From contig CAWGYH010000002.1 of NCBI GenBank assembly GCA_963826935.1, positions 712,028-776,027 on the forward strand: 64,000 bases of DNA, given 5' to 3'. Each line of letters opens with the position of its first letter. Position 1 is the stretch's first letter. Positions 36,472-44,999 of this stretch are shown piece after piece. A program made the position numbers and the translations under genes. Source of the DNA: an uncultured Chlamydiales bacterium (GTDB lineage Bacteria > Chlamydiota > Chlamydiia > Chlamydiales > FEN-1388). The notes beneath the pieces were generated by a model. The model ran no database searches and was not told the origin of the DNA. It saw only the letters and a program-made list of their open reading frames with translations.

Positions 36472-36481
36472 TATTTTCAAG

Positions 36482-36518
36482 CCGTTTAAGGTTAAAAACT
36501 TAAACGGGTTTTGTTTTT
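36482..36518 (+). terminator. rho-independent terminator after tRNA-Thr
   Basis: Stem ccgtttaag / cttaaacgg with loop gttaaaaa, then gttttgttttt. Confidence 0.6.
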
Positions 36519-36544
36519 CTTAGATTTTTGAAAACGCGTGCCGT

Positions 36545-36563
36545 GGGGGAGTTTTGGGGGAAT
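36545..36563 (+). promoter_or_regulatory. paired GGGGGA(G/A)T motifs with 11-nt spacing near the island I left end
   Basis: gggggagt at 36545 and gggggaat at 36556. The same motif pair occurs at 44801/44812 and 49146/49157. Confidence 0.45.
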
Positions 36564-36608
36564 TGTCTGCAACAAATCATCACACAATACAACTACTTAC
36601 AGAATGGA

Positions 36609-36638
36609 TTGACTTGTCAGTCGCCCTCTTGCTATTTT
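36609..36638 (+). promoter_or_regulatory. candidate sigma70/66-type promoter of the AlbA_2 gene
   Basis: TTGACT, 18 nt, TATTTT, about 30 nt upstream of the RBS and ATG. Consensus match only. Confidence 0.35.
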
Positions 36639-36667
36639 CTTTCTGGACTGACTAACGACTGAGGTCA

Positions 36668-38305
36668 ATGATGAATGCACTGATAGATGAACTGTATGCC
36701 TGGATGAAACTACCTGAAAGTGCTCATCTTGAGTTTAAAGAAGCCAAAAGCAATTATGACAGTGAGAAGTTGACTCAATACTGCTGTGCACTTGCAAATG
36801 AAGGCGGTGGAAAGTTTATTTTAGGCGTATCAGATAAACCGCGTGCAATTGTGGGAAGTCAAGCATGTTCTAATTTAGAGAAAACGAAATCAGATCTAAT
36901 TACAAGGCTTCAGCTTCGAATTGAGGTAGATGAAATACATCCTGAAGGCAAAAGAGTTGTTATTTTCCATGTTCCTGCAAGGCCTATTGGAGTTCCTATT
37001 CAAATTAAGGGTTTATATTGGATGAGGCGAGGAGAGGAACTTGTGCATATGACTCAAGATATGCTCAAGAGAATCTTTGAGGAAGGAGTGCCTGATTTTT
37101 CTGCTCAAGTTTGCAAGCATGCAAAATTTGAGGATTTGGATTCTAAGGCCATCTCGCGGTTTCGTGAGTTGTGGCATAAACAGACTGGAAATGGAGCATT
37201 GAGAAACAGCTCTGATGAACAACTACTTAAGGATTGCGAAGCTGTTGTGCAAAAGGGTATTACATATGCCGCGCTCATACTATTTGGAACGTCGAAAGCC
37301 CTTGGAGAGCATCTTGCGCAAGCAGAAGTTGTTTTCGAGTACCGCTCAGGATATGTTATAGGGCCTGCGCAGCAGCGAGTAGAATATAGACAAGGATTTT
37401 TCTCATATTATGACGAACTTTGGGAAACGGTAAATCTGCGAAACGATATTCAGCATTTTCAGGACGGTCTTTTTATCTGGAAAATACCCACCTTCAATGA
37501 AAAAGTGGTTCGAGAAGCTGTCTTAAACGCTATTTCCCACCGTGATTATAGAGCTTCTGGTTCCATATGGGTAAAACAGTACCCCCGAAAAATTATTATT
37601 TCTAGCCCTGGCGGGCTCCCTCCGGGCATTACTCCTGAGAATATCCTTTGGAGGCAAGACCCGCGCAATAGACGAATTGCTGAGATTTTTTCTAAATGTG
37701 GGTTAGTTGAGAGAGCCGGTCAGGGCACAGATAGGATTTTTGAGGAAAGTATAAGACAGGGAAAATCCTTACCTGATTTTGCTCATACAGATGAATATCA
37801 AGTGGTATTGACATTGGATGGTGAAATTCAAGATGAGCGATTTTTGAGGTTTTTGGAAAAGGTAGGCAAGGAGAGAGTGGCCTCTTTTAGAACGGAGGAC
37901 TTTTTGGTTTTGGACTATGTACATAAGGAGCGACGTCTCCCTTCTGAACCCCCAGAGCTGAAAGTTCGTTTAAAGCAATTAGTTGATTTAGGCATTATTG
38001 AACAACTGGGCCGCGGGCGGGGCACTCGCTATATTCTTTGCCATCGTTTTTATGAAGAGATGGGCAGAAGCGCAGAATATACGAGAAAGCGAGGGCTTGA
38101 TAAGGAGACAAATAAGCAGCTTTTACTGAGCCATATTCACTCAAATGCCAAAATAGGAGCTAAATTTGCTGAGTTGACTCAGGTTTTGCCAATGCTTTCT
38201 CCTAACCAAGTCAAACAACTGGTTAAAGAGCTAAAGGCTCAGGGTAAAATCTGTTCAATGGGGAACACGAAGGCTAGTTTATGGTATCCGGTGGCTGAAG
38301 GGTAA
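36668..38305 (+). CDS. AlbA_2 (Schlafen-like) domain protein with a RecG-C-terminal-like HATPase_c_4/wHTH region
   Basis: N-terminal ESAHLEFKEAKSNYDSEKLTQYCCALANEGGGKFILGV (AlbA_2 signature). Central AVLNAISHRDYRASGSIWVKQYPRKIIISSPGGLPPGIT and NRRIAEIFSKCGLVERAGQGTDRI. A paralog lies at 52099-53727. Confidence 0.75.
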   Translation: MMNALIDELYAWMKLPESAHLEFKEAKSNYDSEKLTQYCCALANEGGGKFILGVSDKPRAIVGSQACSNLEKTKSDLITRLQLRIEVDEIHPEGKRVVIFHVPARPIGVPIQIKGLYWMRRGEELVHMTQDMLKRIFEEGVPDFSAQVCKHAKFEDLDSKAISRFRELWHKQTGNGALRNSSDEQLLKDCEAVVQKGITYAALILFGTSKALGEHLAQAEVVFEYRSGYVIGPAQQRVEYRQGFFSYYDELWETVNLRNDIQHFQDGLFIWKIPTFNEKVVREAVLNAISHRDYRASGSIWVKQYPRKIIISSPGGLPPGITPENILWRQDPRNRRIAEIFSKCGLVERAGQGTDRIFEESIRQGKSLPDFAHTDEYQVVLTLDGEIQDERFLRFLEKVGKERVASFRTEDFLVLDYVHKERRLPSEPPELKVRLKQLVDLGIIEQLGRGRGTRYILCHRFYEEMGRSAEYTRKRGLDKETNKQLLLSHIHSNAKIGAKFAELTQVLPMLSPNQVKQLVKELKAQGKICSMGNTKASLWYPVAEG

Positions 38306-38314
38306 TAATGGTTT

Positions 38315-38417
38315 TTGACCCAATTCTGACCTAATCTTGACCCAATTCTGACCTAATTCTTAGAGACAAATCGCCCTGAATTAATCAGCCTGTAATGGTT
38401 GTATTTGACCTAATTCC
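38315..38417 (+). repeat. 11-bp-period direct-repeat array TGACC(C/T)AAT(T/C)(C/T)
   Basis: TGACC starts at 38316, 38327, 38338 and 38349 (exact 11-nt period), with a fifth copy at 38406. The array begins 10 nt after the AlbA_2 stop. Confidence 0.85.
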
Positions 38418-43473: not shown

Positions 43474-43567
43474 AGGTTCTGATGCCTTTGTTCGGGTCAG
43501 TTTTATCCGAAATTTTAAGGCAAATCACATAAACACTAAACCAAAATGTGTCTAATTTCTTGAAGAA

Positions 43568-44014
43568 CTAGGCTGGTTTTGCTGTGGGTTGTTGTTGCAA
43601 AGCTGCCTGTGCAATCTGAGTGGTGGTAGCGTTTGCGATGGCCGTTTCTGCCTGGGCAAGTTCGGCTGTTGCTTTTCGTTGCTGGCAATAATCATAGATC
43701 AGGAGGCCTGTTCCTATTATTCCAAAGACAAGAGCGAGGCCGAGAAGAGGGAAAGTTGCAGGAGTTGCACCTGTTGCGGCAAGAATGCCCATAACTATGA
43801 AACATGCGGCAGCATTGCCAAAAGACGCCAAAGCTGGCCACGTCCATTTTCGTTCCCAAAACCCTTTTATGCGACCTTTTGTCTTTTCGGTGTCGGCCAA
43901 TTCGCTCTTTACATGCGCCGCATCAGTGAGCGTGGCGCCATTTACGCCCTCGCCTGCGCCTGTAGAGGTAGTTGGATGAATGGGTGCAGAGCCTCTGGCT
44001 TTTGTTGGTTCCAT
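43568..44014 (-). CDS. small protein with a bilobed hydrophobic domain (Inc-like or small translocator-like T3SS substrate candidate)
   Basis: 148 aa. Disordered S/T/G-rich N-terminus, then two hydrophobic segments (WPALASFGNAAACFIVMGILAATGA and LLGLALVFGIIGTGLLIY) separated by TPATFP, then a Q/A-rich tail. It lies 14 nt downstream of the chaperone gene. Confidence 0.55.
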   Translation of the reverse strand: MEPTKARGSAPIHPTTSTGAGEGVNGATLTDAAHVKSELADTEKTKGRIKGFWERKWTWPALASFGNAAACFIVMGILAATGATPATFPLLGLALVFGIIGTGLLIYDYCQQRKATAELAQAETAIANATTTQIAQAALQQQPTAKPA

Positions 44015-44028
44015 AACAAGTTTTCTCC

Positions 44029-44718
44029 TTATAAAGTGCTTTCGAGTTTTTGCGCCTGGTTGGTAAAGGCGGTAAATTCAGGCTTATTTTGGTATTGCTG
44101 AATGGCGTTATGTAAAAGCTCACGTGCCTTGTCGATTTCTTTTATATGTTTTAAGCAGAGGGCGCTGTTGATGATAGGAAAGGGGTCGTTTTCATTATAT
44201 AGCAGAGCGATGGCATAGGCCATGACCGCAGTGTCGTAGCTTTTGTTTTGTTCTTCACACAGTCCTAATGCTTTCCAAAATGATGCCACAGTGGGATTAA
44301 GTGCCGAGAGAACGAGGAATACATCAGCCGCGTCTTTGAAATTGTGACGGGCAAATAGTTGTTGCCCTATCTCATAACAATGGGTCATATCGCCGTCAGA
44401 AATCTGGAGTTCTTTTTGCATTATCATTCCCTCTTTGATTTGCTGGGAATGATTTTGCTCTATAAACTGGTGCAGCTTTTTGCTGTTTAAATGAGCAAGC
44501 CCGCGAGCATTGTTTACGAGGATTTTCATGCCATGCTCAATACGCGTGCAGTAGTCCTTCCACCCATGTGCCATTTTTTCTTTACATTCGCTTTTGTAGG
44601 CATCGAGCGACTTAAGTGGATTTTGTTTATAAGTTGTCTCAGCAACATCCGCAGCGATTATCGCAAATGATTCCTCTAAGGGAATATCCTTAACATCTAC
44701 TTTATGGCTTTTGCCCAT
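44029..44718 (-). CDS. type III secretion class II (TPR) chaperone, LcrH/SycD/Scc2-3 family, with an N-terminal extension
   Basis: The C-terminal half aligns by eye with SycD: ISDGDMTHCYEIGQQLFARHNFKDAADVFLVLSALNPTVASFWKALGLCEEQNKSYDTAVMAYAIALLYNENDPFPIINSALCLKHIKEIDKARELL. The 229-aa length resembles chlamydial Scc2/Scc3. Confidence 0.75.
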   Translation of the reverse strand: MGKSHKVDVKDIPLEESFAIIAADVAETTYKQNPLKSLDAYKSECKEKMAHGWKDYCTRIEHGMKILVNNARGLAHLNSKKLHQFIEQNHSQQIKEGMIMQKELQISDGDMTHCYEIGQQLFARHNFKDAADVFLVLSALNPTVASFWKALGLCEEQNKSYDTAVMAYAIALLYNENDPFPIINSALCLKHIKEIDKARELLHNAIQQYQNKPEFTAFTNQAQKLESTL

Positions 44719-44754
44719 AAGGGGTATCCTCCGATACTATCTTGTCTTTTCCTT

Positions 44755-44783
44755 ATATTAATATTTTTTTAAATTATTGTCAC
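44755..44783 (-). promoter_or_regulatory. candidate promoter of the chaperone/Inc-like operon
   Basis: The minus strand reads GTGACA, 17 nt, TAATAT, about 35 nt upstream of the RBS ggagg. It is conserved in the paralogous copy (49099-49128, 18-nt spacer). Confidence 0.4.
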
Positions 44784-44800
44784 GGCATTTCATCAGGGGT

Positions 44801-44819
44801 GGGGGAATGCTGGGGGAAT
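44801..44819 (+). promoter_or_regulatory. paired GGGGGAAT motifs with 11-nt spacing
   Basis: gggggaat at 44801 and 44812, just upstream of the chaperone -35 element. A further tgggggagg lies at 44931, 20 nt from the att repeat. Confidence 0.45.
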
Positions 44820-44956
44820 TTCTCACAAAAATAGGCAATACAATACAAAAGACGGCAAGAACTTGTTATTTTATAAAATGCTTAATTACAATGAGATAGG
44901 TGCTGCTGCGTATCGTCAGCTACTACCAATTGTGGGGGAGGTGCCCTTCCCCTAAT

Positions 44957-44999
44957 ATTCGTAATGCGGAGGTCGTCGGTTCGACTCCGGCTTCAGGCA
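44957..44999 (+). repeat. exact 43-nt direct repeat of the tRNA-Thr 3' part (attR of island I / attL of the distal element)
   Basis: attcgtaatgcggaggtcgtcggttcgactccggcttcaggca is identical to 36429-36471. Confidence 0.9.

Follow-up and report, generated by a model that had tools for sequence, protein, structure and literature searches.

An 8.5-kb island at tRNA-Thr in an uncultured Chlamydiales bacterium shares its gene layout with minimalist phage-associated islands and belongs to a family of tRNA-targeting elements

The window analysed here is a 64,000-nucleotide stretch of an uncultured Chlamydiales bacterium (lineage FEN-1388; assembly GCA_963826935.1, contig CAWGYH010000002.1, forward-strand positions 712,028 to 776,027), numbered below from its first letter. 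It contains an 8,528-bp element, termed Island I, that is inserted in the 3' half of a tRNA-Thr(CGT) gene by a tyrosine integrase and carries a backbone in the order int, an int-overlapping open reading frame (ORF), an 80-aa ORF, a 117-aa ORF and a DUF3987 gene. We judge it moderately probable that Island I is an integrative, excision-competent, self-replicating and non-self-transmissible 'hitcher' of the type represented by phage-inducible minimalist islands of the chromosome (PICMIs) and integrative mobile elements encapsidated in virions (VEIMEs). The kind of element is already known; new are its phylum, the targeting of tRNA genes, an excisionase-like (Xis-like) protein family that sequence profiles do not see, and cargo related to type III secretion systems (T3SSs). 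Related contigs from our searches are designated L001, L002 and so on.

The integration site is delimited by the following features:

36398–36472, forward strand: tRNA-Thr(CGT), the integration target (ARAGORN; Rfam tRNA, 66 bits)
36429–36478, forward strand: attL core, left copy of a 50-nt direct repeat (repeat search of the window)
44957–45006, forward strand: attR core, right copy of the same repeat (repeat search)

The two repeat copies agree at 49 of 50 nt and consist of the 3' 44 nt of tRNA-Thr, from the anticodon loop onward, and 6 nt of flanking sequence; the island's own 44-nt copy regenerates the 3' part of the tRNA gene. Their start-to-start distance gives the element length of 8,528 bp, in agreement with the span of 36472–44999 assigned in a preliminary description of this DNA, which had proposed an integrative island at tRNA-Thr in a chlamydial genome. 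The tRNA, the repeats, the integrase and the threonyl-tRNA synthetase ThrS, encoded 14 kb upstream, together bear this proposal out. The best named matches of ThrS are Chlamydiia, Parachlamydiaceae and Protochlamydia amoebophila at 68–69% identity (unnamed relatives reach 84–85%), and because all of these named matches are chlamydial, we take the host to be chlamydial as well. An ORF listing of the island also confirmed the proposed gene order at 36668–44718. In an Rfam scan of the island, the tRNA was the sole match, and promoter and terminator scans gave nothing clearly above shuffled expectation.

The first two backbone genes form a tightly coupled pair:

38647–39720, forward strand: tyrosine integrase, 357 aa, starting MAYIETRK (PF00589, 3.2e-32; phrog_1, 6e-64)
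39720–40412, forward strand: int-overlapping ORF (ORF3), 230 aa, its ATG overlapping the stop codon of int by one base (TAATG)

The integrase gene sits within the att repeats, and an alignment of its product to Escherichia coli IntA shows the R, HxxR and Y motifs. An identical 357-aa product is called in other assemblies, and the integrases of related elements are 56–62% identical to it. The enzyme had been expected to be of the P4/CP4-57 type; this did not hold, as we found no DUF4102 (PF13356) match and 22% identity to IntA. A conserved chromosomal Xer-type recombinase, named in the preliminary description as the finding that would overturn it, is not what we see: with 71–87 bits, the protein stays far under the cut-offs of 220–335 of the XerC, XerD and XerA equivalogs and is therefore not a Xer recombinase. 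ORF3 has no family match in Pfam, NCBIfam, PHROGs or PADLOC. Its C-terminal motif, W-FSDLYPG-KPGRKKK, constitutes an AT-hook-like tail, and its family comprises only 35 representative clusters. At 20 loci that encode a related integrase, int is followed at a distance of −17 to +30 nt by an ORF of 159–292 aa. We propose that ORF3 may be an accessory factor for excision, by analogy to the PICMI gene iolg.

Downstream of a 332-bp spacer, the remaining backbone genes follow as an operon, which, like the int-ORF3 pair, is conserved among relatives:

40745–40987, forward strand: putative excisionase-like winged-helix protein (ORF4), 78–80 aa (predicted fold; context)
40980–41333, forward strand: conserved 117-aa ORF (ORF5), overlapping ORF4 by 8 nt and ending 3 nt before the DUF3987 gene
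41337–42826, forward strand: DUF3987 (YfjI-family) AAA+ helicase, 496 aa if intact, here read as two ORFs of 115 and 380 aa

ORF4 had been described as an AlpA/excisionase-like helix-turn-helix protein, a label whose AlpA part has no support in the sequence. Membership of the AlpA family was rejected on all sequence tests: ORF4 has no match in Pfam (E≤0.1), NCBIfam or PHROGs, including AlpA (PF05930) and HTH_17 (PF12728); comparison with E. coli AlpA gave a BLASTP E-value of 0.30 and, with a 40-sequence alignment, an hhalign probability of 0.3%; a profile search of PDB sequences returned no match; and none of 64 database homologues carries a Pfam domain. Excisionase-like character is suggested by the predicted fold and by genomic association. 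The AlphaFold2 (AF2) model (pLDDT 82.6) has the topology b-a-a-b-b-a, an order as in excisionase-type winged helices. Foldseek against the PDB found nothing at E≤1e-3, with Tn916 Xis ranking top by probability (0.80) and TM-score; against BFVD, two hits at E≤1e-3 were both uncharacterised phage proteins, and many proteins named excisionase, Excise or PrtN scored probabilities above 0.9, but at E-values of 0.05–0.25. Homologues of ORF4 occur in 26 IMG/VR contigs, often beside integrases 46–57% identical to that of the island and sometimes at a distance of ~60 nt. Some of these contigs belong to genuine tailed phages that encode portal, head-closure and tail proteins. The modelled fold is consistent with ORF4 being an excisionase-like recombination directionality factor that would belong to AlpA's structural class and stand outside the AlpA family. 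ORF5 has no family match in Pfam, NCBIfam or PHROGs and no profile match among PDB sequences; an alignment of 17 sequences contains 16 invariant residues, and we regard the product as a putative DNA-binding protein.

The assignment of the last backbone gene to DUF3987/YfjI, made earlier from the translation, is well supported. The two ORFs match PF13148 (DUF3987) with E-values of 8e-16 and 3.6e-76 over profile positions 2–67 and 72–363 of 364, PHROG profiles are hit as well, and the intact protein aligns with E. coli YfjI at 25% identity over 432 aa (E 1e-27). Its RKS and DE motifs (R94, K95, D199, E200), which correspond to Walker A-like and Walker B elements, are invariant across 48–60 homologues. 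A profile search of PDB sequences yielded no match. The AF2 model (pLDDT 89.7) shows an AAA+ core together with a long helical insertion and, at the C terminus, a winged helix, and its best PDB folds are the MCM2-7, archaeal MCM and ComM helicases. In longer DUF3987 homologues, further domains are present, either a DnaG zinc ribbon with Toprim or a RepB primase domain; the short chlamydial form has no primase domain. For DUF3987, a helicase function in mobile elements was predicted earlier (PMC5862659), and a PriCT-DUF3987 protein has experimentally been found to be a 5'-3' helicase dependent on its Walker motifs (PMC11724360).

In the window, an A8 tract at 41670–41677 divides the gene into two ORFs. 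Contig L001, which derives from short reads of another sequencing run and shows 99.9% identity across 5,180 bp, has A9 at this point and encodes all 496 aa in one ORF, and A8 recurs in the ENA contig L002, a second assembly. The tract may represent a homopolymer error, a real inactivating change or a slippage-prone sequence; if it is real, integration and excision may persist and replication may be lost unless slippage restores the frame. We also considered programmed frameshifting and rejected it, as we found no evidence for it and a homopolymer error or real mutation is more likely.

Beyond the genes, the island contains repeated motifs at positions expected of recombination and replication sites:

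36543–36564, forward strand: left-arm paired motif GTGGGGGAGTTTTGGGGGAATT with 11-nt spacing (repeat search), a candidate arm-type recombinase site
38315–38419, forward strand: 11-nt tandem repeats TGACCYAATYY, 4–5 copies, between the AlbA_2 gene and int (repeat search)
38494–38500, reverse strand: inverted arm motif TGGGGGA upstream of int (motif scan)
40413–40744, forward strand: 332-bp ORF3-ORF4 spacer with three direct GGGGAATT repeats (copies at 40542, 40573 and 40621)
44799–44820, forward strand: right-arm paired motif GTGGGGGAATGCTGGGGGAATT (repeat search; motif scan)

The arm motif TGGGGGA(A/G)T occurs at 36544 and 36555 in the left arm, at 44800 and 44811 in the right arm, and inverted at 38494. 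An extra TGGGGGA copy lies at 44933, and six of the nine copies of TGGGGGA in the window fall within the island. Relatives have paired 9-nt motifs, likewise spaced by 11 nt, 60–110 nt inside attL and 120–160 nt inside attR, as well as a third, inverted pair directly upstream of int (a TGCACCA pair). Most of them use TGGTGCACT and two others GGCACACT; the positions match between six relatives and Island I. Since its paired motifs keep the positions seen in relatives, both recombination arms of the island look intact, with the AlbA_2 gene and the Inc-like/chaperone gene pair described below placed within them as cargo. The 11-nt array upstream of int is a candidate for operator, arm or iteron sites, with GGACAAnnn repeated three times at the equivalent position in relatives. 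Five of the six copies of GGGGAATT in the window are in the island, three in the spacer and one in each arm (36557 and 44813), and GGGAAT-type motifs occur in the equivalent spacer of L003, L005 and L047. The spacer copies are candidate promoter/operator or origin sequences of the ORF4-ORF5-helicase operon, and those of spacer and arms together may be shared binding sites or an origin.

Island I is one of many such elements. Scanning species-representative genomes revealed three backbone loci in metagenome-assembled genomes (MAGs) of Chlamydiota or Parachlamydiaceae, in which Int, the int-coupled ORF, ORF4, ORF5 and DUF3987 follow in the same order at 40–65% identity. Look-ups of database homologues added further backbone loci on contigs of 1.3–2.7 Mb, and a metagenome scan added 80 loci, about 35 of them with an ordered backbone and a G+C content of 0.32–0.61. 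This range among taxonomically unassigned metagenome loci suggests that the family may reach beyond Chlamydiota. Over all backbone loci, the targets comprise eight tRNA types (tRNA-Asn, Tyr, Thr, Phe, Met, Leu, Ala and Lys). We mapped 13 further complete elements of 6.8–11.3 kb, twelve integrated and one circular. The integrated ones, at tRNA-Asn, Tyr, Thr, Phe, Met and Leu, are bounded by exact 21–58-nt repeats of the tRNA 3' part that start in the anticodon loop. A search for related elements at tRNA-Thr, suggested in the preliminary description, succeeded with L061, a chlamydial-type contig that carries an 11.3-kb relative at tRNA-Thr(CGT) with an att core 93% identical to that of Island I.

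The circular element is L047 (metagenome contig Ga0193744_1000386), in which a 127-nt terminal overlap closes a 9,301-bp circle with the full backbone and a homologue of the island's zinc-ribbon gene. At ~7380–7500, a single tRNA-Asn 3' fragment is situated between right-arm and left-arm sequences with both motif pairs present; L047 thus carries exactly the predicted attP. Also circular is L076 (7.4 kb, overlap of 123 nt), a DUF3987 element that is less closely related. Two IMG/VR contigs, which the database files as viral, contain a related Int (56–57% identity), an int-coupled ORF and an ORF4-like gene (L015, 2270–8518; L010, 2034–7229), with a DnaB-type or D5-type primase-helicase as replicase in place of DUF3987. 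As the layout is otherwise equal, the replicase module is exchangeable.

From these components, a life cycle can be proposed in which Int, ORF3 with its AT-hook-like tail and the Xis-like ORF4 would excise the element, after which the ORF4-ORF5-DUF3987 operon would be expressed. The MCM-like helicase might then recruit host primase and polymerase to replicate the circle, perhaps guided to the GGGGAATT repeats by the 117-aa protein. Transfer from cell to cell would require a helper, and the host would gain from the cargo, namely the AlbA_2/Schlafen-like protein, the zinc-ribbon protein, and the Inc-like protein with its LcrH/SycD chaperone.

Among published systems, the PICMI (Barcia-Cruz et al. 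2024) comes closest, with CP4-57 and P4 being more distant. In PICMIs, int is likewise followed by a gene that overlaps it (by 1, 4 or 13 nt) and then by a small gene of Xis/AlpA type, a small ORF and the DUF3987 gene 'prim', after which come a few accessory genes; they are similarly small and similarly devoid of capsid, capsid-remodelling and packaging genes. Excision of these islands depends on int, the int-overlapping iolg and alpA, their replication depends on prim, and a virulent phage packages concatemers (PMC10803314). Their definition includes a tyrosine or serine integrase (PF00589, PF00239 or PF07508), which Island I has through PF00589, and a DUF3987 (PF13148) or DUF5906 primase gene, which it has as a gene frameshifted in this assembly. 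PICMIs reside next to fis, their stated hallmark, in Vibrionaceae, whereas Island I resides at tRNA-Thr in a member of the Chlamydiota; their AlpA is recognised by PF05930 or PF12728, whereas the Xis-like protein matches neither; and they average ~6.7 kb, compared with 8.5 kb. Island I falls outside the formal PICMI definition on location, host and AlpA profile, and differs further in its T3SS-related cargo. Induction, packaging and transfer depend on a helper phage in PICMIs; for Island I, such dependence is a prediction.

The preliminary description had seen a counterpart of the CP4-57 and P4 cores, a comparison of which YfjI homology and the satellite-like layout survive, while the P4-type integrase and AlpA do not; the PICMI is the better match. 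The E. coli cryptic prophage CP4-57 (5' module ssrA-intA-yfjH-alpA-yfjI) resembles Island I in having a tyrosine integrase at a small stable-RNA gene, a small DNA-binding gene, DUF3987/YfjI, and defence and toxin-antitoxin cargo downstream. It differs in its P4-type IntA, in an AlpA unrelated in sequence to ORF4, in yfjH, which lies on the opposite strand and is uncoupled from int, and in its size of 22 kb. P4-like satellites and phage-inducible chromosomal islands (PICIs) have in common with Island I an integrase, an AlpA/Vis-type regulator, a primase-helicase replicase and tRNA integration. P4 also carries the capsid-size genes psu, delta and sid and an alpha primase with a D5-type helicase, and PICIs carry terS, capsid-morphogenesis genes and a master repressor. 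Among the island ORFs, we found no match to the capsid-size, capsid-morphogenesis, alpha primase, terS or master repressor genes in Pfam, NCBIfam, PHROGs or PADLOC.

The marine VEIMEs (Eppley et al. 2022) are likewise small and combine an integrase, an excisionase or AlpA and a primase/helicase with variable, defence-type cargo and no capsid genes (PMC9618062). They are defined by their presence as concatemers inside virions, a state that is hypothetical for the chlamydial family. Reported hosts of this class of VEIMEs and tRNA/tmRNA islands include Verrucomicrobia (PMC9618062, PMC12595487), and tmRNA/tRNA islands without transfer genes are moved by a jumbo phage (PMC12595487). By analogy, the missing capsid and packaging genes of Island I would be normal for its kind and no anomaly, given that both PICMIs and VEIMEs do without them (PMC10803314, PMC9618062). 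Our literature searches found no description of this element family in Chlamydiae; the sole paper containing both DUF3987 and chlamydia names them in unrelated places, and no paper combined SatelliteFinder with chlamydi*.

The lack of transfer and capsid genes noted in the preliminary description holds up: none of the 10 island ORFs matches a capsid, terminase, portal, tail, relaxase or type IV secretion system (T4SS) family (Pfam, NCBIfam, PHROGs and PADLOC; E≤0.1). Likewise, 74 non-core ORFs of ten complete relatives include no capsid, packaging, relaxase or T4SS gene among the Pfam and PHROG families listed.

Several observations weigh against reading Island I as an excision-competent, self-replicating hitcher. 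No helper was found in silico, to our knowledge no tailed phage of Chlamydiae has been described, and the island contains no recognisable repressor or inducer gene. The helicase is frameshifted both in the window and in L002. Excision of Island I itself is a prediction from its att sites and gene content, and the roles of ORF3 and the 117-aa ORF follow from their positions only. A search of IMG/VR with the attP junction pattern produced no match. We also considered the island-only contigs L002 and L034 as evidence of excision and discarded them, as they end at the att repeats and their lengths fit assembly breaks induced by repeats: the 10,604 bp of L034 equal the island spacing minus an att repeat of ~34 nt plus ~30 nt of overlap per side, and L001 likewise ends at internal repeats. 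Finally, rare single matches to structural proteins in the relatives may exist beyond the top 25 families listed.

A possible, though doubtful, alternative is that Island I is a true phage satellite in the manner of PICMIs, with a phage of environmental chlamydiae inducing the Xis-like gene and the element being excised, replicated and packaged, probably as concatemers, in helper capsids. The shared PICMI core order, including the int-overlapping gene and the small ORF between the Xis-like gene and DUF3987, argues for it, as do the equal lack of capsid and packaging genes in PICMIs and VEIMEs, the Int and Xis types that the island has in common with real tailed-phage contigs, and the abortive infection (Abi), toxin-antitoxin and restriction-modification genes of relatives, which are frequent in satellites. 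Phage terminase and tail genes have, moreover, been reported on some chlamydial plasmids (PMC7846284). Against it stand the lack of a known helper phage and of any terS-like, cos or pac feature found, the departure from the PICMI hallmarks of fis site, Vibrionaceae host and AlpA Pfam match, and a single-protein scan of IMG/VR that returned no close DUF3987 relative. The only chlamydiaphages we know of are Microviridae with single-stranded DNA (ssDNA) of ~4.5–5 kb, too small for 8.5 kb.

Conjugative transfer is the least probable of the alternatives. Island I would in this case be an integrative mobilisable element that uses the conjugative F-like T4SS encoded by plasmids and islands in Parachlamydiaceae and Simkaniaceae through an unrecognised oriT and a helper relaxase. 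Environmental chlamydiae do possess F-like T4SS tra systems, and some of their plasmids have terminase and tail genes that derive from phages (PMC548262, PMC7846284); these are possible helpers, and we found neither linked to the element family. The element has no transfer genes of its own, as a mobilisable element would, and a co-infected host cell would presumably unite donor and recipient. However, neither the island nor, among the families listed, ten complete relatives revealed a relaxase, a coupling protein or a recognisable oriT; the annotated ORFs, which cover part of the window, include no T4SS gene; and all cited analogues of the backbone are phage-associated. Somewhat less improbable, yet still unlikely, is a cryptic, immobilised remnant like CP4-57 of E. 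coli K-12 that has lost excision and replication and is retained for its cargo. The frameshifted helicase, the 1.8-kb cargo gene between attL and int, the decayed, integrase-less sister island directly downstream, which indicates that such elements decay at this site, and another genome with decayed AlbA_2 and int fragments behind its tRNA-Thr island all point this way. A remnant is harder to reconcile with att repeats that are identical at 49 of 50 nt, paired motifs retained in both arms, a full-length Int with visible R, HxxR and Y motifs, and backbone ORFs that are intact save for one homopolymer difference that a 99.9%-identical contig does not share; three other complete relatives with intact ends also have cargo between attL and int. 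We retain the hitcher of PICMI/VEIME type as the preferred reading.

Chlamydial mobile elements known to date are plasmids, one T4SS island family, insertion sequence (IS) elements and small ssDNA phages. Conserved, tRNA-targeting and self-replicating islands would add a route of gene flow in these obligate intracellular bacteria, with a cargo that turns over from genome to genome (Inc-like protein and chaperone, ankyrin, toxin-antitoxin, Abi and restriction-modification genes). They also represent a potential integration or shuttle tool for hosts that are hard to manipulate genetically, as they combine a native integrase and its 44-nt att site in the tRNA with an excision factor and a ~4-kb replicon. 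As no AlpA or HTH_17 profile recognises its Xis protein, the family would escape current satellite finders. We give only a low probability to the broader proposition that Island I stands for minimalist phage satellites that form a widespread family in environmental Chlamydiota. If true, it would imply undiscovered viruses of these obligate intracellular bacteria that package 7–11 kb of double-stranded DNA (dsDNA) or concatemers, and a shuttling of T3SS effector/chaperone pairs and defence genes between chlamydiae in one eukaryotic host cell.

The cargo of Island I consists of the following genes:

36668–38305, forward strand: AlbA_2 (Schlafen-like) plus HATPase_c_4 protein, 545 aa (Pfam, 2.9e-14 and 3.1e-15)
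42841–43473, reverse strand: four-Cys zinc-ribbon protein, 210 aa, a semi-conserved accessory gene beside DUF3987
43568–44014, reverse strand: Inc-like membrane protein, 148 aa, with one 51-residue hydrophobic block (hydropathy)
44029–44718, reverse strand: LcrH/SycD-type TPR chaperone, 229 aa (TIGR02552, 3.9e-26; TPR hits)

The AlbA_2 assignment of the preliminary description is upheld by the Pfam match, and the protein additionally hits phrog_12156 (3e-40) and pAgo-associated PADLOC models (1e-14). Its gene is placed between attL and int, whereas int lies 0.2–0.4 kb from the tRNA in most relatives. Homologues were found in L062 and, outside the mapped element, in L061. Compared with window positions 36472–44961, the 8,508-bp contig L002 has a nearly identical backbone, but its AlbA_2 region differs by ~20% and is broken into fragments. 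The stretch from attL to int seems to be a hotspot of cargo exchange or decay.

The zinc-ribbon protein has no family match in Pfam, NCBIfam, PHROGs or PADLOC. Homologues of 31–37% identity adjoin DUF3987 in L004 and L047, and a tblastn match lies downstream in L059; directly 3' of DUF3987, two families alternate, either the zinc ribbon or a family of ~200 aa. The single hydrophobic block of the 148-aa protein presumably corresponds to the pattern of chlamydial Inc proteins. Our test for Inc proteins looks for a bilobed hydrophobic domain of ~40–60 residues together with a TPR chaperone matching TIGR02552; the neighbouring chaperone scores 91 bits on this model, under its cut-off of 104.8. Judged by sequence, the 148-aa protein is a candidate T3SS substrate.

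Other members of the family carry different cargo: HTH-SocA/Panacea, a PBECR nuclease, and ankyrin and PDZ proteins in L003–L005; a type I restriction-modification system and MqsA in the L035 island; and AbiEii/AbiEi, GNAT acetyltransferases, a CPT kinase, an M78 peptidase with HTH, and a group II intron in ten other complete relatives. L037 has a group II intron reverse transcriptase in the interval from attL to int (5868–7328), and in L033 a fragment of an IS66 transposase immediately precedes the target tRNA (5845–6387), indicating that other mobile DNA accumulates at the sites of relatives.

Directly downstream of Island I, positions 45007–54218 hold an older, decayed island that ends at a degenerate third att copy (54173–54218):

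47918–49062: paralogues of the Inc-like/chaperone pair, 88% nucleotide identity over 1.4 kb
47918–48358: paralogue of the 148-aa Inc-like protein
48373–49062: chaperone paralogue, 88% identical
51293–51868: CHC2 DnaG-type zinc-ribbon ORF
52063–53727: AlbA_2 paralogue, 68% amino acid identity

This region also contains a DUF1016 fragment, a MarR regulator and a methyltransferase, and no integrase was found in it. In L061, the sequence downstream of the element (17546–21464) similarly includes an N-terminal AlbA_2 fragment (82% amino acid identity) and a C-terminal integrase fragment. With decayed neighbours in both the window and L061, the tRNA-Thr(CGT) site is a hotspot of arrival and decay.

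Upstream of Island I, a recD-like ORF (34876–36408) appears to overlap the first 11 nt of tRNA-Thr and is preceded by recC-like and recB/addA-like genes at 29687–34925. Also outside the island, a 787-aa ankyrin-repeat protein encoded on the reverse strand (16208–18571) shows partial matches to the Legionella Dot/Icm effectors AnkH, AnkY and AnkX and is a candidate eukaryote-like effector.

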